A stretch of DNA of 64,000 nucleotides from an uncultured delta proteobacterium (GCA_963843145.1 CAWJJC010000012.1:160001-224000); one strand, 5' to 3'; counted from the stretch's first letter, positions 5,799 to 22,438 are shown. Notes: a model not told the origin generated them from the letters alone. Translations and numbers: made by a program.

Positions 5799-6992
5799 CT
5801 AGTGTTTGCTCATCATCTGAGTCACGGCCTTTTCCAGGCCGTCGAGGGTCAGTTCAAACATGGGGAAGATTTCCCGGATCTGCAGGATGGTGTGGGTGTA
5901 GGGCCAGCGTTCGGCCATGACCGGGTTGATCCAGACCGATCGCGGAAAGGTCTGGGCGATAAACTTCAGCCGTTCGAAGCTCGGCTTCCCTGACCGGTCC
6001 CCCACATAAATCGACCCGTCCATGCCCAGTAACTCGTAGGGGGCCATGCTGGCGTCTCCGAGGATGACGAAGCGGGTTTCCGGGTCTAGGCGGACCAACT
6101 GTTCCACCGGGAAAGGTTTGGTCCGGCGGGATGGATCTTCCCACAAGTAATCATAGATGGTGTTGTGGAAGAAAAAGGTCTTCAGGTCTTTAAACTGGGC
6201 CCGAGCGTAATTAAACAAGGTCTGACAAAGTTCGATATAGGGGTCCATGGACCAGCCGCCGTTGTCCACCGCCAGGATAACCTTTAAGCGGTCTTTTAAA
6301 CTACGGTCGAAGATGATTTCTATTTCTCCGGCGTTTTTCATGGTCTGGTAGATGGTCTTGTCCACATTGACCCGGTCCTTGGGGCCGGTAGGGATCAAGT
6401 TCCGCAACCGCTTCAAGGCCTCGCCGATCTGGGCCTGGGTCAAGGGCCCTTCCTGAGAGTAATCTCGATAGCGCCGCTCCATGGCTACCTTGACGGCCGA
6501 CTTGTTGCGCGACAGGCCTCCCACCCGCATCCCGCCGGGGTGGAATCCCGAATGCCCCACCGGCGAGGTTCCCCCCGTGCCGATCCACTTGCCGCCGCCG
6601 TGATGGGCCTCGGTCTGTTCCTTTAAACGGTCCATAAAATATTTCAGCAGTTCCTCGGGAGTCAATTTTTTGAGTTGATCTTCGTCGATTCCTAAAAAGT
6701 CGGCCAGGGTCTGGGGATCTTTCAACCAGTCTTCCAGCAGGGCGCGGGCCACTTCCGAAAGCTCGAAATCTTCGGGGGAGGTAAATTCCAGGCCCCTGAA
6801 ATGGTGGGCAAAGGCCCGGTCGTAGAGATCGAAATACCTTTCGCTCTTGATCAACAGCGTCCGAGCCCCAATGTAAAAATCATCCAGGGAGTTGATCAGT
6901 CCCTGACTTAAGGCCCGCTGTAACTTCAGAAAGGCCGTGGGACTTACCGGGATCCCGGCCTCCTTCAAAAAATAAAAAAATTGTACGAACAT
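5799..6992 (-). CDS. VWA/CoxE-like protein
   Basis: Likely start MFVQFFYFLK. It has KWIGTGGTSP, DNGGWSMDPY (MIDAS-like), FFHNTIYD and GDASMAPYE, and lies downstream of a MoxR ATPase. Confidence 0.85.
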   Translation of the reverse strand: MFVQFFYFLKEAGIPVSPTAFLKLQRALSQGLINSLDDFYIGARTLLIKSERYFDLYDRAFAHHFRGLEFTSPEDFELSEVARALLEDWLKDPQTLADFLGIDEDQLKKLTPEELLKYFMDRLKEQTEAHHGGGKWIGTGGTSPVGHSGFHPGGMRVGGLSRNKSAVKVAMERRYRDYSQEGPLTQAQIGEALKRLRNLIPTGPKDRVNVDKTIYQTMKNAGEIEIIFDRSLKDRLKVILAVDNGGWSMDPYIELCQTLFNYARAQFKDLKTFFFHNTIYDYLWEDPSRRTKPFPVEQLVRLDPETRFVILGDASMAPYELLGMDGSIYVGDRSGKPSFERLKFIAQTFPRSVWINPVMAERWPYTHTILQIREIFPMFELTLDGLEKAVTQMMSKH

Positions 6993-7032
6993 GGCGCCCC
7001 TTACTTGATGAACTCGCAAAAAGACGAATTAG

Positions 7033-7884
7033 CTATATCTTGAAACGAGTCACCCCTTTTTGGGCGACCGCGTAGTCGGGGCTTTTCTTGAACAATACCC
7101 CCAGATAGGGTACCTCACCCTTAACCAGGTCCTTGGGACGAAAATCAGGGTCGGAGCGCAGTGCCCGAATCCAGTTGATCAGTTCCCGGGTAGCCGGTTT
7201 TTTTTCAATGCCCCGGATTTCGCGCAGCCGGTAGAAGGCCTGCACGGTGCTGTCCAGCAGGTCCCGGCTGATTTCCGGGAAATGAACCTGGATGATTCGG
7301 CGCATCATGTCCGGATCCGGAAAGGCGATGTGGTGGAAGTTGCAGCGGCCTAGGAAGGGGTCGGACAGGTCTTTCTTGGCATTGGAGGTAATGACGATCA
7401 CCGGGCGATGTTTGGCCTTGACCGTTTTGTCGATTTCAATGATGTCGAACTCCATCTGGTCCAGCACATCGAGCATATCGTCCTGGAAGTCCGTATCGGC
7501 CTTGTCGATTTCATCGATCAGCAGGACCACTTTTTTATCGGTCACAAAGGACTGCCCAATTTTCCCCATTTTGATATATTCTTCGATATTGCTCACCTCC
7601 CGATTGGAGTCGCCGAAACGGCTGTCGTTCAACCGGGTCAGGGTGTCGTATTGATAAAGCGCATCAATCAACTTCATGCTCGATTTAACGTTGAGCACGA
7701 TCAGGCGCATCTTTAAGGCCTCGGAAATGGCGTAGGCCAGCATGGTTTTGCCGGTCCCCGGCTCACCCTTCAATAACAATGGCATCTCCAAGGACATGGA
7801 GATGTTGATGATCTTGGCCAATTCCTCGTCCAGGACATATTTGGACGCCCCGGAAAATTTTTGCGGTTCGGTTCCACTTGCCAT
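7033..7884 (-). CDS. MoxR family AAA+ ATPase
   Basis: Walker A GEPGTGKT, Walker B LLIDEIDKAD, ITSN. Confidence 0.9.
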   Translation of the reverse strand: MASGTEPQKFSGASKYVLDEELAKIINISMSLEMPLLLKGEPGTGKTMLAYAISEALKMRLIVLNVKSSMKLIDALYQYDTLTRLNDSRFGDSNREVSNIEEYIKMGKIGQSFVTDKKVVLLIDEIDKADTDFQDDMLDVLDQMEFDIIEIDKTVKAKHRPVIVITSNAKKDLSDPFLGRCNFHHIAFPDPDMMRRIIQVHFPEISRDLLDSTVQAFYRLREIRGIEKKPATRELINWIRALRSDPDFRPKDLVKGEVPYLGVLFKKSPDYAVAQKGVTRFKI

Positions 7885-7917
7885 GCTGTGACTCCTTCAT
7901 TTAATTTAACTGCTTAT

Positions 7918-7946
7918 AATATAAGAAAATTTAGGTTTCTGGTCAA
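7918..7946 (-). promoter_or_regulatory. sigma70-type promoter for moxR-vwa
   Basis: Minus strand TTGACC-N17-TATATT. Confidence 0.55.
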
Positions 7947-7972
7947 GGGTTTTATGAGAAAACGCGGTCTAT

Positions 7973-8188
7973 TCAATGTTTTCGGCGAGTATAAATTACC
8001 TGATACCGGTCGCAGGAGGCCATCAGGCAACTGGTGCATTCTCCGGCCAACTCCAGGGGGTCCAAAGGCTCCAGATGGACCTCGAAACCCATTGCCCGGT
8101 ATTCTTCCACCGCTTCACTCAATCGAGGTTCATCGGCGGTAAACTGTTTAGCCCAGCCCTCGCTTTCCAATTCCTCTTGACGTTTCAT
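7973..8188 (-). CDS. Small hypothetical protein with CxxC
   Basis: RBS GGAGG before ATG 8188; EGW.KQF.ADEPRLSEAVE.Y..GFEVHLEP..CTSC..IYTR. Confidence 0.7.
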   Translation of the reverse strand: MKRQEELESEGWAKQFTADEPRLSEAVEEYRAMGFEVHLEPLDPLELAGECTSCLMASCDRYQVIYTRRKH

Positions 8189-8410
8189 GAGAACCTCCAA
8201 AATGCGCCGACCGCCAAGCGCTGAGCGCGAAGCGCCAAAGGCGACCAGGGGAACAAAATATCCATTGCCCCCCCCACTTATCTTTTATAAGACGCTCCGC
8301 GCCCGGCGAGAAAAGAGGCCGTCCGATGCATCCAGACCGTCGGTATTTTTCATTTTACCACATTTCTACAAAGAGCGCTGGAGAAGTCTGCTTTCTCGCT
8401 TGGGGGCCTT

Positions 8411-8701
8411 TTACCAGGAATGCGCGATGGCTCCCAGCGTACAAGCAGCGATGCAGGGAAGTGGCGGCCGATCGACCACCGGCTTACAGGGGCCGCAGGC
8501 GTATTTGATTTTTCTGCGTTCCGAATCGCGAATTACCGCTACCGGGGTTTCACGAAAAGGATCGTTGGGGTCATCCTCCCGGACCTCAAAGGCCCTTGCC
8601 GGACAGGCCGAAACGCAGTCGCCGCAGCCGTTGCATTTATCGGTATCCAGACTGATAAAAAATTCGCCTGCCCCGTCTTGAAATCCGTAATTGGCAATCA
8701 T
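8411..8701 (-). CDS. 4Fe-4S ferredoxin associated with bzd-type benzoyl-CoA reductase genes
   Basis: CNGCGDCVSACP plus CGPC..PCIAAC; directly follows the bzdQ-like gene. Confidence 0.85.
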   Translation of the reverse strand: MIANYGFQDGAGEFFISLDTDKCNGCGDCVSACPARAFEVREDDPNDPFRETPVAVIRDSERRKIKYACGPCKPVVDRPPLPCIAACTLGAIAHSW

Positions 8702-8787
8702 AAGAATATGTTGGTTATCGATATTCGGAAACGGTTGACCTCCGGTAGAACCGCACCAGAGGCTTTGGCCCTGCGCCTTGGCCTTTT

Positions 8788-9648
8788 TTATTTTTTCCTT
8801 TCCGCCAGGGCCTTGGCAAACAGGGCGGCGCCGAGGGCCCCGGCGATCTGGGTATCGTACCTGGGCGTGAGGGCCTTGAGGCCCAATTCCTTTTCCAGCC
8901 GGGAAACCACTCCGCTATTTTTGGCAATACCGCCGGTGATGGCGAAGTCCGGCTCCAGGCCGATCCGTTTCAGCAGGGTAGCCACCCGGTGGGCCATGGC
9001 GGAGGTGTAGGCGGCGATGACTCTTTCCTTGGGCCACCCCTTCCGCAGAAGACCCGAAGCCTCGGACTTGGCGAAGACCACGCAGGTACTGCTCACCGGG
9101 GGCGGCTCTTCCTTCACCTGCAACGACAGTTCGCCTATCTCATTAATGGAGACCCCCAGCAGGTCGGCAAACACCTCCAGGCCCCGGCCGGTCCCGGCGG
9201 CGCATTTATCGTTCATTAGAAAATTGGTCACCTTGCCCTGTTCGTCGATATGGATGGCCTTGCAGTCCTGGCCGCCCATGTCCAGCACGGTGCGGACCGT
9301 GGGGCCGTACATAAAATTGGCGCCCCGTCCATGGCAGGCGATTTCCGTGACGGCCCGTTGAGAAAAAGGCACATTGACCCGGCCGTAGCCGGTTCCCACG
9401 ATATAGTGAATTTTATCCAAAGTCAGACCGGTCTTCTCCAACGCCCAGTTCATGGCATTAGCGGCGCTGTTAGGGCTGTCGGACCCGGTGCGCATGTTGG
9501 CATAGCAGTAGATTTCGCCGTCGGTCATCACTACCGCCTGGGAGCTTACTGAACCCACATCCACGCCGGCGGTAATGAGCGTAGCTTTCCTCCAATCTTT
9601 CTCCGGCGCGGTCCAGCGGGATTCGGTCCATCTCCAAAATTCGGCCAT
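8788..9648 (-). CDS. bzdQ: Benzoyl-CoA reductase bzd-type subunit Q (ASKHA ATPase/activase)
   Basis: N-terminal EFWRW.E..W...DWR, GVDVGSVSSQ, TGYGR, DMGGQDCK, NDKCAAGTG and STCVVFAKSE. Confidence 0.8.
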   Translation of the reverse strand: MAEFWRWTESRWTAPEKDWRKATLITAGVDVGSVSSQAVVMTDGEIYCYANMRTGSDSPNSAANAMNWALEKTGLTLDKIHYIVGTGYGRVNVPFSQRAVTEIACHGRGANFMYGPTVRTVLDMGGQDCKAIHIDEQGKVTNFLMNDKCAAGTGRGLEVFADLLGVSINEIGELSLQVKEEPPPVSSTCVVFAKSEASGLLRKGWPKERVIAAYTSAMAHRVATLLKRIGLEPDFAITGGIAKNSGVVSRLEKELGLKALTPRYDTQIAGALGAALFAKALAERKK

Positions 9649-9669
9649 AGTTATTTCTTCCCTGTTAAT

Positions 9670-10437
9670 TTATTCGCCGGCGGCCAATAGGGCCGCGCCA
9701 TAGGCGCCGACCGTTTCCGGGGTTTCCGGGATGAAGATTTCCGTATCCAGTTCCCGTCTCAACAATTCCACCAGACCCACGTTTCGGGCCACTCCGCCGA
9801 CGAGCAGCACTTCCTTTTCCATCCCTACCCTCCGGACCAGGGAGACGATCCGGTCGGCGATGGCCTCGTGAACGGCCCGGGCGATATCCGGCTTGGGAGT
9901 CTGGGAATGAATCAGAGTGACCAGCTCCGATTCGGCAAATACGGCGCATTGAGCGTTCATGGCCACGGCTCTGGTAGATAGCAACGAAAGCGGCCCTAAC
10001 TGTTCAATGGTCACTTCCAGCGCCCGGGCCATGGCTTCGGTAAAGGCCCCGGTCCCGGCAGCGCATTTTTCATTGATGGCGAAGTCCACCACCTTACCGC
10101 CGGCGTCGATCCTGATGGCCCGTGCTTCTTCGGCCCCCACGTCGATGACGGTTCGGATGCGCGACTCCAATCCGATAGCGCCTCTGGCCACTGCCGAAAC
10201 CTCGCTGACCTGGTCGTGGGCTTCGGAAACTTCTTTCCTCCCGGCGCCGGTGGAGAGGATCCGATCTATTTGATTTAACTGGACCCCGGCCTGGGGCAGG
10301 GCGTCCGCCCAGGCGGCCTGCGTCGATTCCTTGAGGTCATATCCAACCGGGATAATGGTTTGGCCTATAATCAGGTTATCCTTTAAAAGGATGATTTTGA
10401 TGGTTTTCGCGCCCACATCCACGCCCGCTGTAAACAT
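9670..10437 (-). CDS. bzdP: Benzoyl-CoA reductase subunit P-like / acyl-CoA dehydratase activase
   Basis: GVDVGAKTIK, TGAGR, DVGAEEAR, NEKCAAGTG and AQCAVFAESE; paired with bzdQ. Confidence 0.7.
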   Translation of the reverse strand: MFTAGVDVGAKTIKIILLKDNLIIGQTIIPVGYDLKESTQAAWADALPQAGVQLNQIDRILSTGAGRKEVSEAHDQVSEVSAVARGAIGLESRIRTVIDVGAEEARAIRIDAGGKVVDFAINEKCAAGTGAFTEAMARALEVTIEQLGPLSLLSTRAVAMNAQCAVFAESELVTLIHSQTPKPDIARAVHEAIADRIVSLVRRVGMEKEVLLVGGVARNVGLVELLRRELDTEIFIPETPETVGAYGAALLAAGE

Positions 10438-10457
10438 GATGTTCTTCCTCTTTTATT

Positions 10458-10535
10458 CAAAAGGTCTTCCGGCGGCACTATTTCCAGAAAGGCTTCCAGG
10501 CGAATTTCAAACTGGCCGATGTCTAGTTCCGGCAG
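10458..10535 (-). pseudogene. 3' remnant of a BzdN/BcrC/HgdB-family catalytic subunit
   Basis: Intergenic minus strand reads LPELDIGQFEIRLEAFLEIVPPEDLL. This matches the GQ...R.EAF.E C-terminal motif of the family and sits where such a gene would end, just before the bzdP RBS. Confidence 0.65.
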
Positions 10536-10714
10536 ACTACCATGCCTCTTATTGTTTTGTCCAGTGGTTGGGCAGGGTTATGGTAGGCGGGGACCACGGT
10601 CTGCGGTCCGAGGCGATGGACCGCTTCGGACCGATTTACGGATTTACGGAGGGCTGACGGACCAGGCGCATAATCCCGTTTTTGATTTTGTTCCGGAACG
10701 GTATGCAGCCTGGC

Positions 10715-11329
10715 CTATTCCTCTGATTCGGGTTCGGAGGAGGCCGGGGGAGATAGGAACGCTTGGGTCAGAACATAAGCGGCTTGAACGGCCTCAGTAG
10801 GACAAAGCGGAAAGCATTCTTTGCAGTTCCAGCACTCCTTAGCGGCTATTTCCGGAATAAAGCTGATCTCCTTCCATATACCCCGGTCAATAAACCCCAC
10901 GGCGTTCTTCTTCTTGACCTCGGCACAGTAGCGTACGCACAGACCACAATGAATGCAAAAGGAGGCCTCTTTTTCAAACCGGTCTTTGTCGGCCCCGTAC
11001 TCTCGAGCCAAATCCTGCAGATCAAAGGCATCCGGAGCATGAGCCAATAACAACTGCAGGATCATTTTGCGGATTCTATCCACTTTCGGAGACCTGGTTC
11101 TGACGACTAAATTTTTTTCCACCGGGTAAACGCAGGAAACAACCAGTCTGGTCCCACCGCGACTCTCCAATTCCACAAGGCACAGCCGGCAACCTCCAAA
11201 AGGCTCTAATTTTTCGTGGTAACAAAGTGTCGGAATCGAAATTCCCGCACTTCGGGCGGCTTCCAAAAGGGTCATTCCTTCCTGGGCGCTGACTTCTTTT
11301 CCGTCAATTTGCAATAGGATTTCGCTCAT
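10715..11329 (-). CDS. bamI: Class II BCR subunit I (NuoG-like 2Fe-2S/4Fe-4S)
   Basis: IPTLCYH, GGCRLC, VVSC, CIHCGLCVRYC and CWNCKECFPLCP; last gene of the bam operon. Confidence 0.85.
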   Translation of the reverse strand: MSEILLQIDGKEVSAQEGMTLLEAARSAGISIPTLCYHEKLEPFGGCRLCLVELESRGGTRLVVSCVYPVEKNLVVRTRSPKVDRIRKMILQLLLAHAPDAFDLQDLAREYGADKDRFEKEASFCIHCGLCVRYCAEVKKKNAVGFIDRGIWKEISFIPEIAAKECWNCKECFPLCPTEAVQAAYVLTQAFLSPPASSEPESEE

Positions 11330-13254
11330 TTTTTCTTACTCTCCCGGACTATCGTTCGCGCTTCTTCGGGAACAGGGGGCGGCACCGGCTCGCCGGAAAT
11401 CTTGTTCACCGAGCGAAAGCGAGGGGGGCAGACTTCAAAGCAGGTTCCGCATTTGGTGCACTTCTCCTGGTCAATGACATGGATCCGGTTCTTGCCCCCT
11501 TCAATCGCTCCGGCCGGGCACTTCTTCAGACAAATCATACAGGCCTGACACTTCGCCGGGTCTATATGGTAGGCAATCAGCTCCTTGCAGGACAAGGCCG
11601 GGCATCTTTTCTCCTTGATGTGGGCCTCGTACTCATCCCGGAAGTAGCGTAACGTGCTTAGAAACGGGTTCGGAGCGCTCTTGCCCAAAGCACAAAGGGC
11701 GGCTTCCTTGGCCGTCTCGGATAGCTCTTCCAGGAGCTCGATGTCACCCTCTTGGCCTTTTCCCTGGGTGATCTTCGTGAGAATCTTCAGCATCTGCCGC
11801 AGGCCTTCACGGCAGGGCACGCATTTGCCGCAGGATTCATCGGTGAGGAAGTTCATGAAGTACCTGGAAACATCCACCATGCAGGTAGTTTCATCCATCA
11901 CGATCATCCCACCGGATCCCATCATGGAACCGACCTGGGTGAGTTCATCAAAACCGACCGGCAGATCCAACAATTCCTCCGGGATGCAGCCGCCCGACGG
12001 TCCTCCGGTCTGCACGGCTTTGAAGCGCTTGCCGCCCGGAATGCCCCCGCCTATCTTGAAGATAATATCCCTCAGGGACGTGCCCATGGGTACTTCCACC
12101 AGGCCGGTATTGGTGATCTTGCCGACCAGGGAGAAAATCTTGGTGCCCTTGCTGCTCTCCGTACCATATTGGGTAAACCAGTCCGCCCCTTTATCGATGA
12201 TCAAGGGCACATTGGCCCAGGTCTCCACATTGTTCAAAACGCTGGGTTTACCCCAGAGGCCCACGATGTTGGAGCGGATATATTTCGGTCGGGGCTCTCC
12301 GACCCGGCCTTCCAGGGCCGTCATCAGCGCCGTTGATTCGCCACAGACAAAAGCTCCCGCCCCCTGATGCACGATCACTTTGAAATCAAAGCCCGTGCCC
12401 AGGATGTTCCGGCCCAGCAGGCCGTACTCCTCCGCCTGCCGGATGGCGAGAAAGACGTTTTCCACGGCTAAAGGGTATTCCTGTCGAACGTAGATATAGC
12501 CCTCGTGGGCGCCGACGGCATAGGCCCCGATGGTCAGCCCTTCGAGAACGGCGTGGGGATTCCCCTCGAGCAGGCTCCGGTCCATGTAGGCCCCCGGGTC
12601 CCCCTCGTCGGCATTGACGATTACATATTTAATCTCCTCCGGGGCATTGCGGGATCCTTCCCACTTGCGCCCGGCAGGAAAGCCGCCGCCCCCCCGCCCT
12701 CGCAGGTTGGCTTTCTTGACTTCCTGCAACACCTGATCGGAGGTCATTCCGGAAAGGGCTTTGGCCAAGGCGGAATACCCGCCAATAGCCAGATAATCAT
12801 CGATATTTTTGGGATCCACACTGCCGTTGGAACCGAAGACCAGCCGCTTCTGGTATTTGTAGAAGGGGATGTCTCCTTCATGAACGATCTTTTCCTGGGT
12901 GTCAGGGTCGGTATAGAGCAGACGTTCGATGACCTTCTTCTCTTTGATCGTCTGGGAGAGTATCTCCGGAACATCCTCCGGCTTTATCTGGAAATAACAT
13001 ATTTCCTCGGGATGGATAACGATAATGGGACCCCGCTCACAAAAACCGTGACAGCCGGTTTTCCGCAGGTCCACCGCAGCGCCTAAGCCTTGTTTCTCAA
13101 TCTCTTCTTCGATGCGCGCCGCGACTTCCCGGCTGCCGGAAGCATGGCAAGCCGATCCGGAGCAGAGGGTGATGCACGGTTTTTGGGGATCTCGGGTCGA
13201 AAGGATTTCCTTCCGGATTGCTTCCAATTCAGCGGGTGAATTTATCCGCGCCAT
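11326..13254 (-). CDS. bamH: Class II BCR subunit H (NuoF-like FMN/NADH-binding)
   Basis: LRGRGGGGF, NADEGDPGA, GAFVCGE, ESCGKCVPCREG and a C-terminal 2x[4Fe-4S] domain. Confidence 0.9.
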   Translation of the reverse strand: MARINSPAELEAIRKEILSTRDPQKPCITLCSGSACHASGSREVAARIEEEIEKQGLGAAVDLRKTGCHGFCERGPIIVIHPEEICYFQIKPEDVPEILSQTIKEKKVIERLLYTDPDTQEKIVHEGDIPFYKYQKRLVFGSNGSVDPKNIDDYLAIGGYSALAKALSGMTSDQVLQEVKKANLRGRGGGGFPAGRKWEGSRNAPEEIKYVIVNADEGDPGAYMDRSLLEGNPHAVLEGLTIGAYAVGAHEGYIYVRQEYPLAVENVFLAIRQAEEYGLLGRNILGTGFDFKVIVHQGAGAFVCGESTALMTALEGRVGEPRPKYIRSNIVGLWGKPSVLNNVETWANVPLIIDKGADWFTQYGTESSKGTKIFSLVGKITNTGLVEVPMGTSLRDIIFKIGGGIPGGKRFKAVQTGGPSGGCIPEELLDLPVGFDELTQVGSMMGSGGMIVMDETTCMVDVSRYFMNFLTDESCGKCVPCREGLRQMLKILTKITQGKGQEGDIELLEELSETAKEAALCALGKSAPNPFLSTLRYFRDEYEAHIKEKRCPALSCKELIAYHIDPAKCQACMICLKKCPAGAIEGGKNRIHVIDQEKCTKCGTCFEVCPPRFRSVNKISGEPVPPPVPEEARTIVRESKKK

Positions 13255-13263
13255 AATTCTTCC

Positions 13264-13716
13264 TTACTCATAATTTTTTAACACGTTGGCTGCCTCGGCC
13301 GGCGCCATCTTACCGTGGGTTTTTCCATCGATTTCCATCACCGGTCCCAAAGCACAGCAGCCGAGGCAGTTGACGGTCTGCAGGCTGAACTTCAAATCCA
13401 GGTCCGATTCCCCGGGGTGAATGCCGGTCAGGTCCTGCACCGTATCAAGAACCCTCTGGGCTCCACGGACATGACAGGCCGTCCCCAAGCAAATGTGAAT
13501 TTCATGACGCCCCTTCGGGACCAGGCTGAAGGCTTTATAAAAGGTGGCGATATGCTGGATGCGGGTCATGGGAACCTGTAGCCGTTCGGCGACCCGCCCC
13601 AAAATTTCCTGGGGAAGCCAATGTTTTTCGGCCTGAATCTCCAGCAGTACCTGAATGAGCGAACTGGGCTCACCGTGATGTTTATCGATGATTTGATCGA
13701 TTCTCTCGTTATCCAT
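13264..13716 (-). CDS. bamG: Class II BCR subunit G (NuoE-like 2Fe-2S)
   Basis: ATFY, CLGTACH and CLGCCALGP. Confidence 0.9.
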   Translation of the reverse strand: MDNERIDQIIDKHHGEPSSLIQVLLEIQAEKHWLPQEILGRVAERLQVPMTRIQHIATFYKAFSLVPKGRHEIHICLGTACHVRGAQRVLDTVQDLTGIHPGESDLDLKFSLQTVNCLGCCALGPVMEIDGKTHGKMAPAEAANVLKNYE

Positions 13717-13770
13717 AGCCTTTGTTCCTGATCTCCCTCTGGCTCTTAAGGCAACGCGCGCTCTTGCATC

Positions 13771-14538
13771 TCAGGAGAGCGCATAGCGCTTCAGGCTTTC
13801 ATCATACCGCACCAGTCGATGTTTGGATGAAATCCCCAGGTGTTTTGATACTTCAGACGGGGTAAGACCTATACCCTGGGCGATTTCTCCGGTGGTGAGG
13901 GGCCCTTTTCGCAGGAGCGACACAATCTGGCCTATAGCCAATTTTTCTATAATGGTCTCATCAAATATCCGCTTCAGTTCGTCACTGTCAAAAAACTTCT
14001 GGTACGCCTCTTCTGCCAGGGCGGGTAACCTCAGCCGCTCCCTTTCCACCAGTCTAATGTAGGGGATGAGTTCGGTCACCACCCCCAGCTTGAGCTGCAA
14101 TCCTTTGGCCTCCAGGCCTTCGCCTTCGCCGAGCGGTCCCAATTCCTTCACCTGCTTGATAAAATCATTGACCGATTCAACAAAAAGGCCTCCTTCGGCG
14201 CCGGACATAAATTGAATCTTTAACCTTTCCGGCCTCAACCCGAGGTGCTCCATAATTTTCTTGCTGATATGCACCATGGTCAAGGCATGGTAGTTCCCGT
14301 GGGTGATGTAGTTGCATTCATTGAGATGGCAGGCGCCAATAAATACGCCATCCGCTCCCCTGGAGAAAGCCCGGAAGACATGGGCCAGGTCGATCCTGCC
14401 GGAACACATGACGCGAATAAGCCTCATTTCGGTGGAATATTGCAGTCTGGAAACTCCAGCCAGGTCCGCGGCGCCGTAGGCTCACCAATGGCAGACAAAA
14501 CCCAATACTTTTGGCTTAAATCTAGGTCCGGCACTCAT
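13771..14538 (-). CDS. bamF: Class II BCR subunit F, MvhD-like selenoprotein (Sec19) with C-terminal HTH-like extension
   Basis: RBS GGAGGT and ATG 14538 give MSAGPRFKPKVLGFVCHW-TGA(14484-14482)-AYGAADLAGVSRLQY, in frame with ORF 13771-14427. The UGA occupies the conserved MvhD CxWC Cys position, with hairpin CTGGA-GTT-TCCAG downstream. Confidence 0.9.
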
Positions 14539-14556
14539 TCGTTCCTACCTCCGTAC

Positions 14557-14637
14557 TTAGATTCTTACCTCCGTTGTTCTGAGAATTTGTCTTTAACAAT
14601 GGAGGTAAGAATCTAAATTTCAAATATTTTTGGCTAG
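14557..14637 (-). repeat. Dispersed bipartite palindromic element, copy A (internally shortened)
   Basis: 60-bp inverted repeat TTAGATTCTTACCTCCRTTGTT..AACAATGGAGGTAAGAATCTAA plus a CTAGCCAAAAAT end; homologous to 37661 and 49752. Confidence 0.9.
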
Positions 14638-14666
14638 CCTTTCCGGCTTTAGTCCTGCACAGGCTT

Positions 14667-17600
14667 CTAGGCATTTACAGCCGCCGCCATAGGTTCAATG
14701 ATCATTTCATCGGAAATCGCCGCGTCAATTTCGCTCAAGATCTCTTCGTCGGTAAAGTGTTTTAGAAAAATGGCACTGGTGGCGCACTTGGTGTTGCAGA
14801 GGCCGTCGCCTTTACAGAGGACCGGATTCACCTTGGCCTTTCGGCCCTGCGGCGTCTCGTAAAACTCAATGGCGCCGTACGTGCAGGCAGTGATGCAGGC
14901 CCCGCAGGAAACACACTTCTCCTCATTCACCTCGCAGACGGCGCCGGAAGCGACAACGGTCTCATGGGAGAGGAGCGTTAAAACCCGGCCGGCGGCTCCA
15001 TAAGATTGGTTAATCGTTTCCGGAATAAACTTGGGATAATGGGCCAAACCGCAGAGGTAGACGCCGTCCGTGGCAAACTCCACCGGTCTTAATTTGACAT
15101 GGGCTTCTTTGAAGAAGCCGTCCGGGCTCAAGGTTACCTTGAAGAATCCGGCAATTTCTTTGGTGCTGGCGGAGGGAATAACCGCGGCCGCCAGGGCCAG
15201 GATATCGGCATCCAGTTCCAGCTTTTTGCCCAAGATGGAATCGGTCTGGGTAACTTTGAGAACGGGACGACCGTCCTCCGATGTCCCCGCTTCTACCTGA
15301 GGCGCATCCTGCGGCTCGTAGCGGATAAACTTGACGTCTTTATTCGAGGCTTCCCGGTAATAATCTTCTTTAAAGCCATAGGTCCTCATATCCCTGAAGA
15401 GTATGGTGATATCCATCTGCGGGTTAAGCTCTTTCAGTTTCAAGGCATGCTTGACGGACTGGCTGCAACAAATCCGGCTGCAATAATTCCGGTCTTGATT
15501 TCGGCAGCCGATGCATTGGATCATCACCAGACTCTGGGAGTTAATCACCCGTTCATCTCCTAGAGCGATCCGCCCTTCCAGCTCCAGGTGCGTCAGAACC
15601 CGGTCATCTTCTCCATACAAGTATTCCGTCGGTCGGTAAACCTCGGCCCCGGTGGCGATGACGGCGGCGCCATGTCGTATCTCGGTGACCCCTCGGTCGG
15701 ATTTCACTTTGGTGACGAAACTCCCGATATAGCCGGTCGCTTCGGTGATGGTCGCCTCGGTATAGACATGGATCAAGGGGTGCCGATACACCCGACTCAC
15801 CAGTTCCCGCACCTGGGCCTGGACGTCCAGGCCTTCCAGGGTATAATGGATTTTTCGGGCGATCCCCCCCAAATCGGTTTCCTTTTCCACCAGGTGCACC
15901 TCGTGCCCCTGTTCGGCAATGGAAAGCGCACAGGTCAGGCCGGCCAGACCCCCGCCGACCACCAAGGCCGCCCTGTTGACCGGCAGATCAAATTCCTGCA
16001 GCGGCTCCAGGTGACAGGCGCGGGCCACCGACATGCGGATGATATCTTTGGCTTTCTGGGTGGCTTCTTCCTTTTCCTTCGAGTGAACCCAGGAGTTATG
16101 CTCTCGGATATTCGCCATGTCTAAATAATATTGATTGATTCCCGCCTCCCGTAGGGTGTCCCGGAATAACGGTTCCAGGGTCCGGGGGGAGCAGGCAGCG
16201 ACAATGACGCGATTGAGCCCTTTTTCCCTGGTCAGGTCCGTTATTTCTTTGGCCGAATTCGTCGCACAGGAAAAAACCTGATTCTGAGCGTGGACCACAT
16301 TGGGCAGGGATTTGCAATACTCGACCGTGTCGGGAACATTTACCACGGAGGAGATATTCGCCCCGCAATGACAGACAAAGACTCCGATCCGCGGCTCCTC
16401 TTGGGAAACATCCCTTTCCGGGGGATAGATTCTTTCCCGGGTCAGCTTCCCGCGCCGGTAGTTCAGGAATTGGCCGCATTGGGAGCCGGCACCACTGGCG
16501 CTGAAAACCGCCTCCGGGATATCGACCGGCCCCTGGAGGGCGCCGCTGACAAAGATCCCGGGCCTGTTGGTCACCAGAGGATTGACCGGATCGAGCTTGC
16601 AAAAATTGTGGTGATTGAGTTCGATGCCGAATTTCTTGGCCAACCCCGATACCTCCGCCGGAGGGTTCAATCCGACGGATAGTACCACCATATCGAATTC
16701 TTCCTCTTGGACGCCGTCTTCGGGGGTGGCATACCGCAGGGTGACATTCTTGGTTTCCGGGATCTCTTTTCCTAGAGATACATAGCTTCTGATAAAGCGA
16801 ACCCCGGGGAGGTTCTCGGCCCTTTGGTAGTAGCGTTCGAAATCCTTCCCGAAGGAACGAATATCGTTATGGAATATGGTACATTCGGCCTCCGGGTGAT
16901 GATCCTTGGTCAAAATCACCTGTTTCTGGGTATAGGTGCAACAGACGGCGGAACAATAGCTGTTACCGCCCGGAGGGTTGATCTGTCTGGAACCGACGCA
17001 TTGGATCCAGGCGATTTTACGGGGATGCTTCAGGTCGGAAGCACGCAGTATCTCACCAGCGTAGGCCCCGGTGGAGGATAAGAGCCGTTCATAGTCCATA
17101 CTGGTCACCACGTTTTGGAACTCTCCGTAGTGATAATCTCCCCGTACCTTAGGGTCAAAGGGCTCGAGGCCGAGGGAGAGAATGATCGCCGCAACCTTCA
17201 GCTCCAGCTTCTCCGGCACTTGATGGAAATCGATGGCCTTATTTTCGCACACGCCTTCGCAGATACGACATTTCTTCTCCTTCAGATATAGACAGCTTTC
17301 GTCGATATAGGAGACCAGGGGAATGGCCTGGGAGAAGTAGATATGAACGGCTTTATTCTCCGATATTTCCTGATTAAATGGATCGGGGTATAATACCGGG
17401 CAGTATTTCACGCAAGTGGTACAACCCGTGCATTGATCCTCTTTGATATATCTTGGTTTTCTGGTCAGGGAGACCGTAAAATCTCCCGCTTCCCCTTCGA
17501 TACCGTTCACTTCAGTATACGTCAGGACCTCGATGTTGGGATGCCGGCCGACCTCGACCAGTTTGGGTGACAGGATTCACATGGAGCAGTCATTGGTGGG

Positions 17601-17792
17601 AAAGGTCTTGTCCAATTGGGCCATGTGGCCCCCGATGCTCGGTGCCTTCTCAACCAGGTAGACCCTAAAACCCGCCGTGGCCAGATCGAGTGAGGCTTGA
17701 ATACCGCTGATCCCTCCACCGACAACCAGGACGTCGCCGAAAGTCCCGGCGTCGAGACTATTCGCCTGCTGTTCCGTCTGTTCTTTTTCCAC
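14667..17792 (-). CDS. bamE: Class II BCR subunit E, HdrA-like flavo-Fe/S selenoprotein (Sec72)
   Basis: ORFs 17577-17792 and 14667-17510 share a frame and are joined by one TGA (17579-17577): [17 protein letters not shown]. The HdrA at 60294 has Cys at this site (DCSICIL). Two FAD-binding GGG motifs; hairpin CTGGTCG-AGGT-CGGCCGG starts 15 nt after the UGA. Confidence 0.92.
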
Positions 17793-17824
17793 TTCTCTTT
17801 CCCTCTTCAGGTTTCTCGGGTTAA

Positions 17825-18976
17825 TTATATTGTTTCATTAATGATTTCAGTGAGATCCTTCACCTCGAGGCGTTCGCTAAGCTCCAGAGTCAACCGGCTG
17901 TCTTCGAACATGGTAATGCAGTAGGGGCAGGCGGTCACCAGCACTTCGGCCCCAACCCCCAAGGCTTGTTCCAGGCGGAGTTCGGAAAATCGTTCACCCT
18001 TTGGCGTCTCCATCCAGATCCGGCCGCCGCCTCCTCCGCAACAGAGGCTGTCAACCCGTGAATCCGGCAGTTCCATCAGCTCCAACCCGGGGATTTTCTT
18101 TAAGGCCTCCCGGGGCTCGTCAAATATACCATTATGGCGACCCAGGTAGCAGGGGTCATGATACGCCACTTTTCTTCCATATTCCTTTTTGATCTCCAAC
18201 CTCCCTGTCTGAAGCAGCTCGAATAAATACTGGGAGATGTGAATGACCTCAAAATTCACCTGGAATTCCGGATACTCATTCTTGAAGGTATGGTAGCAGT
18301 GGGGGGAGGAAACCAGGATTTTTTTCACCCCATGATCGATGAAGGTTTTGATGTTTTCCCGGGCCAGGCGTTTGAATAATTCCTCATCGCCCGCCTTGCG
18401 GATGCTTTCTCCGCAGCAATTTTCCTTCGTGCCCAGTATCCCAAAGTCCACCCCGGCTTGATTGAGCAGAGCGGCTGTGGCCCGGGCCACCTTTTTTAAC
18501 CTGGGATCATAGCTGAGGTAACAACCGGGGAAATATAAAATTTCCATCCCCTCGGTGAAGGGTTTGACCGACAGTCCTTCCGCCCACTTGGCTCTGTCTT
18601 TTCGCGCTTCAGTCAAGGGGTTCCCTTCGTCAATGAGGCTGGCGCTGGCGGTACGCACCGGCTTGACGGCCTTCGGAAAAACTTGATATTCCGTGGCAAT
18701 CCGGCGCAGGGCGATCCCGGATTGTATCTGTTGGACGTCTCGGGGACAGCGCTGCGGGCAACGGCCGCAGGTCGTACAGCGCCAGATTTCTTCACTTTCT
18801 ATGTCCGTCAAACCGAACGTGGCCTCCCGAACGATCTTGCGTATACTGAAGTTTCTGACCCGGTTCCAGGGACAAACCGTATCGCATAATCCGCATTGAT
18901 AGCATCGCTTGAAGGCGTCTCCACCGCTCGCCTTGATGACTTCTATGATCTCTTGATAGGGGGCTACAGTCTCCAC
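17825..18976 (-). CDS. bamD: Class II BCR subunit D (HdrC/HdrB-like, CCG domains)
   Basis: [38 protein letters not shown] and LCCGGGGG. Confidence 0.9.
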
Positions 18977-19074
18977 GGTCTTTCTCAGTCCTTTTCCCGG
19001 GGCATAAGGGGATGTTTACCCTTTCTAATCCGAAAACGGTTCTCTAAATCGTTACCAGGCGGGCTTTTAATTTC

Positions 19075-19101
19075 AGCCAAAAATTGAAAATTTTTGGCTA
19101 G
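19075..19101. repeat. Short hairpin module of the dispersed element
   Basis: AGCCAAAAATT-GAA-AATTTTTGGCTAG; its CTAG end contains the bamC stop codon. Confidence 0.75.
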
Positions 19102-19649
19102 CCCTTCTTGGACACGGACAGTCGGGCCACAGTGTCCAGGACCTTCTCCAAGCCATATTTGTCTACCAATGATTCCAACCCGATTTCCACGTCCTCGGCC
19201 TTCACCTCTTCTTCGACTTCCTCTTCCCTTTCTTCGTACGACAGGGCATTCACCAGGCACCACTTGACGCACAAGGGCTCCTCCTCGCCTTCACACATAT
19301 CGCATTTCAGCGGAAGACCGGAATCGGGTTCCTTGAAAAGATCCCGGGAGGGGCAGGAAGAGCGGCAAAAAGCACATTCGTCGTATTCTTTACCGTCAAT
19401 CACATATTTGTCCCGCCCCATACACTCGGCTTTAGCATTTTCGCCGGCGTAAACGGGAACATAAACGTCTTTCAGCGGTTCACGAATCACTCGAATACGG
19501 GACCTGGCCGGATTATTGCTGCTATATTGGGGTGCCGCGTGAAAGGCGGAGCAGGCGACCTCGCAGGCTCGGCAACCGTTGCATTTATCCACATCGACCT
19601 TTATCGTTTTAACTATTTTCTTTTTCTTCTCACCCATGACGATACCCAC
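19098..19649 (-). CDS. bamC: Class II BCR subunit C (Fe-S electron transfer)
   Basis: CNGCRACEVACSAFH, CAFCRSSCP, KCDMC and LCVKWC; immediately after bamB. Confidence 0.9.
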   Translation of the reverse strand: MGIVMGEKKKKIVKTIKVDVDKCNGCRACEVACSAFHAAPQYSSNNPARSRIRVIREPLKDVYVPVYAGENAKAECMGRDKYVIDGKEYDECAFCRSSCPSRDLFKEPDSGLPLKCDMCEGEEEPLCVKWCLVNALSYEEREEEVEEEVKAEDVEIGLESLVDKYGLEKVLDTVARLSVSKKG

Positions 19650-19674
19650 CTCTTCACTTTATTTCTCCAGCCAT

Positions 19675-21666
19675 TTACGCCGAAGCCGCTTCAGATGGAG
19701 TCCCTTCGTTTTCCGTGTAGATCCCTCTCTTCTCAAAGTCTTCGCTCACGTAATCCAAACCCAATTCATGCAGGGACTCTTTCGTGGGAATTCCCTCACT
19801 ATTCCAGCCCTTAAATTGGTAATAGGTATCTAAAAGCTCCTTTTCCAAATCGGGAAATCTTTTTTTCCAATGGTCTTCCGGCGGCTTATCATCTTTTCTC
19901 CTCATGCCTCTGCGGATATTGATAGCCCTAACCAAAGTCCGGTACCTCTTGGTGGCTTGCGTCAGTTTGTCTTCATCCATTTCGATCCCAGCACCAGACG
20001 AGATAAATTTCGGGTAGTTATGTATATGATAAGGAGGCTTCAGGGGAAAGGATGACAAACCGGCGCACATCCCGAGGGCGTCATCGATGTAGTGCATCCG
20101 TTCCTGCCAATCGACAATGTCACAACACATTTGCACCGTGGGGTAGAAGGGCATGGATTTCTCCCCCCGGGGTTCCCAATCCAAAAAAATCTGCTTGAAC
20201 TTTTCGTCCGGAACGTGAAACCAATCCTGGACAAAGGCCTCCCGCTCCTCCCGCGTCGGAAAAGGCGCCTGGGGGAACTGCCCTTCAATTTGGGTGATGT
20301 TGATCTTTTCGCCGGTGGCATACATGAGGAAATAAATGGGATTGAGCATGGACAGCTTGAGGGGCAGTTGCTCGTGCTTTTTAATATTATTATGGGCATA
20401 GGCTTCCGCGCCCTTGCCGATCTGCCGGGCCGCCCAATAGGTGCCGTTGGCCAACACATCGCCGATCCCGTCCCGCCGAACGATGCGGTCCAATAACCAG
20501 TGAAATCTCCCTTCATTGTCGGAAGGCATTCCGGGAAAGTCCTGATCAGTCAAAATGCCGGCTTCATAAAGCTCCAGGGCGAAGGCCATGACCTGGGGGG
20601 CGGAGAAGGCGTCCACCCCATACTCCGTGGCACTTTGAGCGATACCCAACCCAAACTCCAGGTCGGACATGGCCGCCATGGTATAGGTAAGTTTCGAGAA
20701 GCATTTCATCATGTAGGTGGGCTGTCCCGGGGGCGCAATGGTGGCCCCGCAGGTCATCGGACAGTTGTAGCAACTGATCAGCCGCCTCCGCATACTATCC
20801 AGGGTCTCCGCCCACTGGCTGGCGATCTCCTCGTTCCAAAAATCTTTGCGGCGGGTGCGGGAATTCCCCCACATGAAATTTTCGGTGTGCCATTTTTCAT
20901 CATGGACTTTCATCTCTTGCGGCGACCCCAGCCCGGCTAAAATGGGCATGACCCCGGGAACCGGATTTTCATTTCGCCATTTTATGTAGGTCAAAACTTC
21001 GTTGCAAAGTCCCATGAATTCAGCCGGCCGGGCCACATTAATGTCCCTGGTTCCCCGAACGACTATGGCCTTGACGCCTTTGTCTCCCATCACGGCGCCT
21101 ATGCCGCCCCGGCTGGCACTGGACCGGCCCTGCTCGATGGAAGCAAAATAGACCCTGTTTTCCCCGGCCAGGCCGATAGCCGCCACCTGGGCCTTGGGCT
21201 CCTTCAACTCCTGCCGAATTAGTTCTGCCGTTTCCACGGCGCCTTTACCTTTCAAATGAGCGGCATCCCTTATTTCCACTTTGTCATTGTTTATCCAGAT
21301 ATAGACCAGATGGGGGGACTTGCCGCGCAGAACCACTTTGTCATAACCGGCATACTTCAATTCCGGCGCCCAAAATCCCCCCATCATGGAGTAGGCCATT
21401 AATTGCGTCTGAGGCGAAATGGTGGAAACGATGGTCCGATTACAACCGGTAGCCGGTGTTCCGCATAAAAGACCGGCGCCGAATATTAAGAGATTATCAG
21501 GGGAAAAGGGTTCGGTTTCGGGGGGAACCCTATCCCATAAAAGCTTGGCGTTAGTCCCAAGGCCCCCCAGATAAAGTTCCGTGTCTCTTGGGTCGGTTTC
21601 TACCCGCTCAATGTTTCCTCGGGATAGATCAATTTCTAAATTAAACCCCGTCTCGGCGTAACGCAT
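19675..21666 (-). CDS. bamB: Tungsten-dependent class II benzoyl-CoA reductase catalytic subunit (AOR family)
   Basis: N-terminus MRYAETG..LEIDL....ERVETDPRDTELYLGGLGTNAK, plus PQEM..HDEKWHTENF, SCYNCP..C, YMMKCF and TQIEG as in BamB; followed by the bamC-I gene order. Confidence 0.92.
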   Translation of the reverse strand: MRYAETGFNLEIDLSRGNIERVETDPRDTELYLGGLGTNAKLLWDRVPPETEPFSPDNLLIFGAGLLCGTPATGCNRTIVSTISPQTQLMAYSMMGGFWAPELKYAGYDKVVLRGKSPHLVYIWINNDKVEIRDAAHLKGKGAVETAELIRQELKEPKAQVAAIGLAGENRVYFASIEQGRSSASRGGIGAVMGDKGVKAIVVRGTRDINVARPAEFMGLCNEVLTYIKWRNENPVPGVMPILAGLGSPQEMKVHDEKWHTENFMWGNSRTRRKDFWNEEIASQWAETLDSMRRRLISCYNCPMTCGATIAPPGQPTYMMKCFSKLTYTMAAMSDLEFGLGIAQSATEYGVDAFSAPQVMAFALELYEAGILTDQDFPGMPSDNEGRFHWLLDRIVRRDGIGDVLANGTYWAARQIGKGAEAYAHNNIKKHEQLPLKLSMLNPIYFLMYATGEKINITQIEGQFPQAPFPTREEREAFVQDWFHVPDEKFKQIFLDWEPRGEKSMPFYPTVQMCCDIVDWQERMHYIDDALGMCAGLSSFPLKPPYHIHNYPKFISSGAGIEMDEDKLTQATKRYRTLVRAINIRRGMRRKDDKPPEDHWKKRFPDLEKELLDTYYQFKGWNSEGIPTKESLHELGLDYVSEDFEKRGIYTENEGTPSEAASA

Positions 21667-21773
21667 TTTTTTCCCCTTCTAGATTACCTGAACCCGTGAT
21701 GGAAGTTATTCTTTTTTCAAAATCAAGATCGTGAGTTCAGGGGCTAGTAAGCCTTTAATGTCGGATCAAAAAA

Positions 21774-22241
21774 TTACTCTTTCGGTTCCAATTTTTTATA
21801 TAAATTAATAAAGTTGCTCCGGTTAAACCCGATGGATTTAAAAAAGGAAAGTATATCCACCGCGTCCCAGCGGGCGGCCGTGTAAATCTCATTGATTTTA
21901 TTTTTCTTGAACAGTTTGAACAAATGGGTGATCAAGGACTGGCCGATGCCGGTCCCCATGTATTTGGGATGAACCCCTATGATCTTGATCCAGCCGCTCT
22001 GGTCCAGGCCAAAGCTATTGGTCATGATTTCGCTGATGATGAAGCCGACCACCTGATCCCCAGCCAAGGCCGCCAGACTCAGGCTGCTGTCATTCTGAAT
22101 GGTATCCCCCCATTGGGCAATTTTCTTGGGGCCGATCTTTTTTTTGGTAATAATCTCCTGAATATGTATCACCTGGGGCAGATCGGCGGTCAATAATTTT
22201 CGGAATTTAATCGTTTTCAAGGCCATCTCGCTCTCCATCAA
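21774..22241 (-). CDS. GNAT family acetyltransferase-fold protein
   Basis: VVGFI, GVHPKYMGTGIG acetyl-CoA-binding motif, FFKSIGF. Confidence 0.85.
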   Translation of the reverse strand: MMESEMALKTIKFRKLLTADLPQVIHIQEIITKKKIGPKKIAQWGDTIQNDSSLSLAALAGDQVVGFIISEIMTNSFGLDQSGWIKIIGVHPKYMGTGIGQSLITHLFKLFKKNKINEIYTAARWDAVDILSFFKSIGFNRSNFINLYKKLEPKE

Positions 22242-22438
22242 TCAATGCGAATGATTTTGACGTGTTTCCCCACCCATTCCGGGGGAAGATAAACCCGCCC
22301 GCTGTTTCCGCTTTGTTTGACCTCTTTTTCAATCATTTCTTCCCCAAAAACTTCAAATTTGGCCTTGAGTGATTTGCTGGTTTCTTCGATATTCTCAGGG
22401 AGTTCTCGGGGATAGTTTTCTCTTTTCAGGGGTACCAT
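22238..22438 (-). CDS. DUF2080 family (AbrB-like) small protein
   Basis: EMIEKEVKQSGNSGRVYLPPEWVGKHVKIIR; ATGA overlap with the GNAT gene. Confidence 0.8.
   Translation of the reverse strand: MVPLKRENYPRELPENIEETSKSLKAKFEVFGEEMIEKEVKQSGNSGRVYLPPEWVGKHVKIIRID

Follow-up and report, generated by a model that had tools for sequence, protein, structure and literature searches.

The stretch of DNA considered here, called the window, comprises 64,000 nucleotides (nt) from the genome of an uncultured delta proteobacterium (GCA_963843145.1, CAWJJC010000012.1:160001-224000; genome size 5.35 Mb, 32 contigs, completeness 97.9%). As judged from its sequence, the minus strand carries a complete operon for a class II, tungsten-dependent benzoyl-CoA reductase (bamBCDEFGHI), followed by the ATPase genes bzdP and bzdQ and a BzdM-like ferredoxin gene, which together make up the whole electron-activating half of a class I, ATP-dependent benzoyl-CoA reductase of the Azoarcus type; the catalytic half of the class I enzyme, BzdN and BzdO, was deleted in place. 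Throughout the order to which the organism belongs, this ATPase-ferredoxin module is under purifying selection, and in the phylum at large it is usually found without BzdN/O, usually in genomes that have the class II catalytic subunit BamB, and often beside the bam genes. Class I (ATP-driven) and class II (bifurcation-driven) reductases are textbook examples of unrelated, mutually exclusive solutions to one energetic problem. We tentatively prefer, as a real possibility, the reading that BzdPQ and its ferredoxin are an accessory of the class II pathway, acting as an ATP-driven electron donor or as a reactivator.

Identity of the class II operon and of the ATPase module

Read 5' to 3' on the minus strand, the genes follow the order GNAT, bamBCDEFGHI, a 277-nt gap, bzdP, bzdQ and BzdM-like ferredoxin (Table 1). 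BamB matches the solved protein of Geobacter metallireducens (PDB 4Z3W chain A) with 1263.4 bits over residues 1-651, its full length, and because this score extends over the whole of 4Z3W the gene is best read as coding for a true class II catalytic subunit rather than for a generic relative of the aldehyde oxidoreductases. All eight bam genes are supported by their domain content and keep the same order in relatives, with bamC being 64-93% identical to the bamB-adjacent gene in 20 related loci; the presence of a BamB orthologue and of BamC to BamI in one cluster thus assigns the predicted enzyme to class II.

Two of the genes are interrupted by in-frame TGA codons, both of which fall at cysteine-motif positions. 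In bamE the codon lies at 17577-17579 (minus strand) within CSM-U-ILSPK, with the frame upstream of it open; in bamF it lies at 14482-14484 (minus strand), where the upstream frame continues as MSAGPRFKPKVLGFVCHW-U-AYG and the motif is FVCHW-U-AYG. Calls of open reading frames (ORFs) under translation table 11 shorten both genes. If the codons are read as selenocysteine, a constituent of the Bam enzyme of Geobacter, both products become longer (Table 1).

The ATPases are equally well defined. BzdQ scores 417.8 bits against the NCBIfam equivalog TIGR03192 (cut-off 380.2), covering profile positions 11-291 of 293, and 417.6 bits in the profile search of the whole genome. Together with BzdP, it aligns over its full length with HadI, HgdC and MbdQ/MbdP, the matches to 1HUX and 4EHT amounting to 183-204 bits (Q) and 158-191 bits (P), and those to the MbdQ subunit in the structure of 3-methylbenzoyl-CoA reductase (9GAI) to 218.9 bits (Q) and 179.0 bits (P). 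Motifs are kept in both Q (DVGS, DMGGQD, NDKCAAGTGR and SSTCVVFAKSE) and P (DVGA, DVGAEE, which is the same in canonical BzdP, NEKCAAGTG and NAQCAVFAESE), and each protein has both cluster cysteines, which we take to be the ligands of a bridging cluster from the alignment to HadI and HgdC and from the structures of these two proteins. The BzdPQ heterodimer has such a bridging [4Fe-4S] cluster and brings an electron to very low potential by hydrolysing ATP. In most loci of the canonical and of the bam-linked kind, a homologue of the ferredoxin (44-78% identity) comes after bzdQ. The three genes are true, intact members of the BzdP, BzdQ and BzdM types; they do not have the make-up of an HgdC/HadI-type activator, for which a single gene encoding a homodimer would lie with its dehydratase, being instead two distinct adjacent ATPase genes in a window without any HGD-D gene.

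Domain, profile and structure-sequence matches hence bear out what an earlier note, made from the sequence alone, had seen in the window, namely bamBCDEFGHI followed on one strand by intact bzdP, bzdQ and a ferredoxin. The same note had remarked that BzdN and BzdO are missing from the window, and this orphan status turns out to hold for the entire genome. No HGD-D (BzdN/O-type) gene is found in the 64-kb window, and among the ten HGD-D and eleven BcrAD_BadFG matches in the genome none reaches the cut-off for BzdN (best 186.4 bits, cut-off 453.8) or BzdO (best 113.8 bits, cut-off 448.6), so that the search for an intact bzdNO pair elsewhere, which the note had considered capable of overturning its reading, brought up none at cut-off; as a positive control, N and O of a canonical locus (L036) reach 486.4 and 588.7 bits. 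With the catalytic N/O pair absent from both locus and genome at these cut-offs, the window does not encode a class I Bzd holoenzyme (BzdNOPQ).

The best sub-threshold N/O matches belong to a separate and complete class I-like cluster of four genes (contig C10:216968-221303; L018:8951-13313), which has two ATPases of its own. This cluster, whose N-like, O-like and ATPase products are all far below the Bzd/Bcr cut-offs, lies beside CoA-ligase and MaoC-like genes and probably encodes an aryl- or alicyclic-CoA reductase. A further HGD-D pair (C27:370042-372363; L017:8926-11379) is HadB/HadC-like and also far below the cut-offs (279 and 162 bits), and there is no PF01869 activase gene on contig C27; the pair is flanked by a divergent AFOR-family gene, a branched-chain-type ABC transporter and an acyl-CoA ligase. 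A solitary activase gene is located at C12:143381-144136. Beyond this genome, BzdO passes its cut-off in none of ten further genomes with N/O-less PQ loci and in all four control genomes with canonical loci, and two complete genomes with PQ-ferredoxin (G015, G056) lack an N/O-type pair and have only three HGD-D genes apiece, all of them lone, those of G015 having unrelated neighbours.

Loss of the catalytic half and distribution of the module

At the place of N and O, a tblastn search of the 277-nt gap reveals what is left of bzdN, a piece of its 3' end whose translation matches residues 353-367 of canonical BzdN (67% over 15 amino acids (aa), E 1.2e-4) and residues 339-359 of a lone BzdN from the same genus (L034; 52% over 21 aa, E 1.1e-4), both E values coming from small searches. 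Two same-genus relatives (L034 of genome G017 and L125 of G019) have, between bamI and bzdP, a lone intact bzdN that scores below threshold (308-320 bits), without bzdO; in a third genome (G020, L126) a lone sub-threshold N (372 bits) is found and P and Q are lost, such a lone bzdN thus persisting in three of the 21 genomes of the order. Because relatives keep the lone gene and the window keeps its scar, the catalytic genes were lost in place: a canonical class I operon at one time adjoined the bam operon, losing first bzdO and later bzdN, and retaining P, Q and the ferredoxin. The suggestion that the locus captures one reductase class replacing the other is in this sense supported as history, by the lone bzdN of G017 and G019 and by the scar of about 21 codons.

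A misassembly at 10.5-10.7 kb, which the earlier note had listed among the findings that would refute its reading, is not supported: in addition to the bzdN scar that precedes bzdP, the same junctions are seen in independent assemblies; the bamI-P junction repeats in relatives (L029, L030, L032, as well as the spacing in G018), and the composition profile has no break at the gap. In two relatives (L031:926-8755 and L033:526-8710), about 8-9 kb of unrelated genes, some of them for DISARM/BREX-like helicases and methyltransferases, lie between bam and bzdP, and P-Q-ferredoxin is intact.

Median ratios of nonsynonymous to synonymous substitution (dN/dS; pairwise Nei-Gojobori, at most eight sequences from the clade that includes the window) are 0.128 (P), 0.067 (Q) and 0.094 (ferredoxin), compared with 0.09-0.35 for Bam subunits, all values being rough because dS (about 0.9-1.5) is near saturation. 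Relaxed selection, which according to the note would have spoken against a retained function, is not compatible with these ratios, and the three genes are under purifying selection. Conservation by column points in the same direction: when 56 N/O-linked and 30 N/O-less P/Q sequences are compared (7 contig-edge rows excluded), Q has 145 columns with a conservation of 90% or more in the N/O-linked set, of which 107 stay at or above 90% in the N/O-less set and only 4 drop below 60%, and the corresponding figures for P are 50 of 74 columns and 3.

Within the order, represented by 21 genomes of one family, BzdQ is above cut-off in 15 and just misses it in a sixteenth (379 bits against 380.2), neither BzdN nor BzdO passes in any (0/21 each), and BamB is present in 20 (at least 80% identical where listed). 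The bamI-bzdP synteny that the earlier note had proposed to compare is conserved in relatives and in the order, bzdQ being downstream of bamB on the same strand in all 11 genomes that have both on one contig.

At the level of the phylum, a sample of 401 genomes (E thresholds: BzdQ <=1e-110, BzdO <=1e-100, BzdN <=1e-80, BamB <=1e-180) includes 64 carriers of BzdQ, 12 of BzdO, 17 of BzdN and 118 of BamB. BamB occurs in none of the 11 BzdQ genomes that also have BzdN and/or BzdO, nor in any of the 12 with a BzdO match; it occurs in 44 of the 53 BzdQ genomes that lack BzdN/O (G019 with its lone relic N counted among them), against a background of 74 of 337 genomes without Q, these counts being adjusted by moving G330 to the canonical group and coming from related genomes that are not phylogenetically independent. 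Tallied by family, before that adjustment, N/O-less Q is found in 14 families, and in 12 of them at least one genome of this kind also has BamB. The nine N/O-less Q genomes without BamB consist of two in which bam genes run into a contig end or bamB is split (G422 and G029), one whose contig stops right after P-Q-ferredoxin-GNAT (G303), two with divergent N/O-like genes beside PQ (G049, G368), two that are only 61-79% complete, and two that are unexplained (G096, G401).

Among the 80 best genome loci with a BzdQ relative (71-89% identity), 56 have N/O-like genes directly 5' of P, in a canonical (GNAT)-N-O-P-Q-ferredoxin order that is followed by a BamI-like gene and is spread over many bacterial and archaeal phyla; in 11 others the contig breaks off within the locus, in 9 bam takes the place of N/O upstream, and 4 have neither, with the nearest relatives of the window all falling in the last two groups. 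In the phylum sample, 22 genomes from 8 families have Q at a distance of no more than 20 kb from bamB or from a paralogue with 57-59% identity, in several arrangements: bzdP-bzdQ-(ferredoxin)-(GNAT) immediately precedes bamB, on the same strand, in families f25, f50 and f22, with bzdQ-bamB gaps down to 265-455 nt in three f25 loci, and bzdPQ is downstream of bamF in f71 and f14, divergent from bamB in f34, and after bamI in the lineage of the window. Canonical N/O is not found in the bam-linked loci fetched from this sample, where only L125 and L126 have an N, in each case a lone one.

On a tree of concatenated P+Q (IQ-TREE quick, 76 rows), the bam-linked sequences do not form one group and well-supported branches force at least three changes of state, and on a larger tree (FastTree, 93 rows) they force at least six; one bam-linked pair consists of Chloroflexota and Acidobacteriota loci. 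The linkage of bam and PQ would thus either have arisen repeatedly or result from cluster and module travelling together. A contig of a Dehalococcoidia metagenome-assembled genome (MAG; L057) bears a canonical bzdN-O-P-Q-ferredoxin locus flanked on both sides by BamE-, BamF- and BamD-like (HdrA/MvhD/HdrC-like) genes, and thus mixes class I and class II parts in another way.

Possible roles of BzdPQ and ferredoxin beside Bam

The earlier note had proposed two new roles for the module, ATP-dependent priming of Bam or service to a dehydratase or reductase encoded elsewhere, and its interpretation is supported in part. As an accessory of the class II pathway, BzdPQ would be loaded by reduced ferredoxin and, upon hydrolysing ATP, would deliver a low-potential electron to the Bam complex. 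The most plausible use of this electron would be catalytic, in the reductive activation or re-activation of the tungsten or iron-sulfur (Fe-S) centres or in the start-up of bifurcation, by analogy with the activation of dehydratases by HgdC and HadI. Stoichiometric use by Bam is less likely, and a catalytic role is favoured because the Geobacter enzyme runs without BzdPQ, some close relatives do without P/Q, and the module is a transiently docking donor.

Several observations weigh against an accessory role. To our knowledge, no experiment or structure ties a BcrAD-type ATPase to a tungsten enzyme, the known partners all having the HGD-D fold; in keeping with a partner that is still of this type, the cluster helices of bam-linked P and Q, with their cysteines, are letter-for-letter canonical. 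In about half of the genomes with both Q and BamB, bzdQ and bamB are on separate contigs or far apart, and the neighbours of seven stand-alone PQ loci are heterogeneous (NifU-like, MoeA-like, BzdV-like and others). Moreover, 74 genomes of the phylum sample have BamB and no Q, five of the 21 genomes of the order have no BzdQ match above 305 bits, G020 kept its lone bzdN and lost P/Q, and the relatedness of the genomes reduces what the co-occurrence counts can bear. Finally, according to a recent preprint, Bam of G. metallireducens was reconstituted with ferredoxin and NADH, without BzdPQ (bioRxiv 10.64898/2026.04.10.717634).

A more far-reaching formulation, which we regard as unlikely and as the less likely of the two when set beside an accessory role, is that of a third, hybrid benzoyl-CoA reductase, in which BamBC, as the tungsten catalytic module, and its HdrA-like core would be fed ATP-energised electrons by BzdPQ and ferredoxin. 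In clusters of the bamB-I type, such as that of the window, the module may be a built-in reductive activase, and it may be a true electron-input module where bamBCDEF, with a ferredoxin-domain BamF, and bzdPQ-ferredoxin occur without adjacent bamGHI (L082, L092, L095, L097, L120-L123). BamF has two architectures: a C-terminal 2[4Fe-4S] ferredoxin domain is found in all eight bam loci without bamGHI beside bamF that were examined (L082, L092, L095, L097, L120, L121, L122 and L123), and is missing from BamF of the window and of all four bamGHI-containing loci examined (L109, L113, L114, L117), a winged-helix-like tail being shared by the window and two of these four. Both cluster types occur with PQ-ferredoxin. 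In five genomes with bamGHI-less clusters, the best BamH-like matches are 41-59% identical, versus 74-97% inside bam clusters.

The main rival, which is somewhat doubtful, is that BzdPQ and ferredoxin serve in trans an HGD-D-fold enzyme encoded elsewhere, be it a dehydratase or a non-canonical aryl-CoA reductase such as the C27 pair, with the bam adjacency being a historical leftover or a matter of shared regulation. The docking-side motifs of P and Q, unchanged from the canonical ones, would suit such a partner, and candidates can be pointed to in the C27 pair, whose contig has no PF01869 gene, and in the lone HGD-D genes, without neighbouring activase, of the complete genomes G015 and G056; in addition, two genomes classed as N/O-less by threshold carry divergent N/O-like genes beside PQ (L131, L132). 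However, no candidate partner is conserved with BzdQ: C27-type matches (spanning positions 51/52-294 or 32-294 of the BzdO profile, in ORFs of roughly 411-460 aa) are present in three of five clearly Q-less genomes of the order and are not found at E <= 1e-25 in several Q-bearing ones, for example G026 and G033, and the lone HGD-D genes of G015 lie among unrelated genes. Dehydratase activators, furthermore, are normally homodimers, a solitary activase exists on contig C12, and the recurrent neighbour of PQ is bam rather than an HGD-D gene. Quite unlikely is a general ATP-driven supply of low-potential electrons to another step of aromatic catabolism, co-regulated with bam because both would be needed on aromatic substrates, whose partner would be neither Bam nor an HGD-D protein. 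Consistent with it are the co-occurrence with BamB at genome as well as locus level, a BzdV-like gene of the NAD(P)H:ferredoxin-oxidoreductase type that follows PQ, apart from bam, in some families (L130, L139), and the GNAT gene that accompanies both classes of reductase operon; yet this family of ATPases is not known to have a partner of that kind, and nothing recurs around stand-alone PQ loci, none of the seven examined having a recurrent alternative partner gene beside PQ-ferredoxin. That the three genes are merely a non-functional remnant of a class I operon on its way to being replaced by class II is very unlikely. The stepwise catalytic loss (BzdO in 0/21 genomes, a lone sub-threshold bzdN in 3/21, the 21-codon scar in the window) would agree with such decay, as would the loss of P/Q themselves in some relatives, but the reading frames are intact in 15/21 genomes of the order, dN/dS (0.07-0.13) is as low as in Bam subunits, catalytic and cluster motifs are intact, and the N/O-less state is found in 53/64 Q-bearing genomes of the phylum sample.

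Compared with known systems, the module shares with BzdNOPQ and BzdM of Azoarcus/Aromatoleum the canonical P-Q-ferredoxin order, a BzdQ above the equivalog cut-off and the same motifs, identities to loci with true BzdN/O being 71-81% for Q and 44-62% for P; it differs in lacking BzdN/BzdO in locus and genome, in having the 21-codon scar in their place and in lying downstream of bamI. With the HgdC/HadI activators and the double-cubane cluster protein reductase, which set a precedent for catalytic 'priming' by ATP-driven electron injection, it has the fold and the cluster-binding cysteines in common, whereas those activators are homodimers that act on HGD-D-fold partners and the window encodes a heterodimer, P/Q, of the type that belongs to stoichiometric reductases, and has no HGD-D-fold partner close by. 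The Bam[(BC)2DEFGHI]2 complex of G. metallireducens has all eight genes in the same order and a closely orthologous BamB; unlike the operon of the window, it is described as ATP-independent and self-sufficient with ferredoxin and NADH, and the portions available of its descriptions mention no ATPase beside it. The genome of that species, as far as the accessible part of its description goes, has no class I-type genes except for an unrelated activase, Gmet_0544 (Butler et al., PMC1924859).

The publications consulted present the two classes as alternatives. Among them, Desulfotomaculum gibsoniae is a related case, as its genome report describes bzdNOPQ-like genes scattered beside class II bam clusters (PMC4148979); the difference is that all four subunits are reported there, and neither a P/Q-bam linkage nor a loss of N/O is described. 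Such ATPases are not mentioned in the accessible portions of the D. multivorans and NaphS2 papers, which describe bam clusters, nor are bam-linked BzdPQ in those of the 2025 Nature Communications paper on the BzdNO structure and of the 2026 preprint on the Bam structure. A search of full-text literature, its scope being articles outside subscription-only papers and supplements, found no account of a bzdPQ-bam linkage; the parts are known families, and their conserved combination, without N/O, with class II operons seems not to have been described before.

By these observations, the ATPase half of the class I enzyme leads an independent existence: in the sample, complete class I never shares a genome with class II, and N/O-less BzdPQ-ferredoxin mostly accompanies class II. 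In metagenome surveys bzdQ serves as a marker of ATP-dependent ring reduction; for instance, a Guaymas Basin study takes BzdQ in Desulfatiglandales MAGs as use of the ATP-dependent (class I) reductase (PMC10570749). Because 53 of the 64 BzdQ-positive genomes are without BzdN/O, this inference fails in our sample, and bzdQ is a poor class I marker in this phylum. The adjacency of the ATPase module may also put in question the ATP-independent operation of the class II enzyme in the lineage of the window, and if the hybrid reductase were real, the label 'ATP-independent' would fail for class II reductases across much of the phylum. How class II enzymes start up, or are kept reduced, at about -0.6 V in sulfate reducers and fermenters is now approachable through a defined candidate of three genes.

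Gene layout and neighbouring features

Table 1. Features of the locus, in positions of the window, listed in the direction of the minus strand.
Feature	Position	Strand	Support or remark
GNAT acetyltransferase	21774-22241	-	PF00583 E 1.2e-8; directly upstream of bamB
bamB, tungsten-pterin catalytic subunit of class II benzoyl-CoA reductase	19675-21666	-	AFOR_N + AFOR_C
bamC, Fe-S subunit	19098-19649	-	Fer4 domains
bamD, HdrC/HdrB-like with CCG domains	17825-18976	-	PF02754 E 3.9e-39; Fer4_8
bamE, HdrA-like, 1041 aa with TGA read as selenocysteine	14667-17792	-	HdrA2 model 779.5 bits
bamF, MvhD-like, 255 aa with TGA read as selenocysteine	13771-14538	-	FlpD E 7e-31; HTH_5; winged-helix-like C-terminus
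bamG, NuoE/HoxE-like 2Fe-2S subunit	13264-13716	-	PF01257 E 1.2e-48
bamH, NuoF/HydB-like FMN subunit	11326-13254	-	PF01512, PF10589, Fer4; nuoF_fam 469.7 bits
bamI, NuoG N-terminal-like 2Fe-2S/4Fe-4S subunit	10715-11329	-	Fer2_4 E 5.4e-20
bamI-bzdP gap, 277 nt	10438-10714		
Remnant of bzdN 3' end, a deletion scar (~21 codons, 63 nt)	10458-10520	-	tblastn of the 277-nt gap
bzdP-like ASKHA ATPase, 255 aa, second subunit of electron-activating heterodimer	9670-10437	-	PF01869 E 1e-45; TIGR00241 226.6 bits
bzdQ ASKHA ATPase, 286 aa	8788-9648	-	TIGR03192 417.8 bits (cut-off 380.2)
BzdM-like 2[4Fe-4S] ferredoxin, 96 aa	8411-8701	-	Fer4 domains
Terminator-like hairpin + T-run, 75 nt past ferredoxin stop	8321-8337	-	pattern scan + sequence
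AAA+ ATPase (AAA/AAA_5, MoxR-like)	7033-7884	-	directly downstream of ferredoxin gene
406-aa protein	5799-7019	-	no Pfam or NCBIfam match

The hairpin past the ferredoxin gene gives no more than a hint of where the unit ends, since promoter and terminator patterns are no commoner over 7700-11500 than in shuffled sequence. At the opposite end of the cluster, the GNAT gene has counterparts directly 5' of bzdN in many canonical bzdNOPQ loci and directly 5' of bamB in the class II loci of several families; in Rhodopseudomonas palustris, the bad operon owes its inducer to a GNAT protein, BadL. Only two wetland metatranscriptome runs reach 0.05 of the sampled words, and these contain short contig pieces on bzdP (10172-10422), bzdQ (9067-9208) and several bam genes, which are of low depth, could stem from DNA carry-over, and in no case span the bamI-bzdP gap.

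The genes for the AAA+ ATPase and the 406-aa protein also trail the cluster as a pair in L034 and L125 (96-98% identity) and in L126 (84-90%), where, P/Q being lost, they sit after the lone bzdN; the two could be a metalloenzyme maturation pair.

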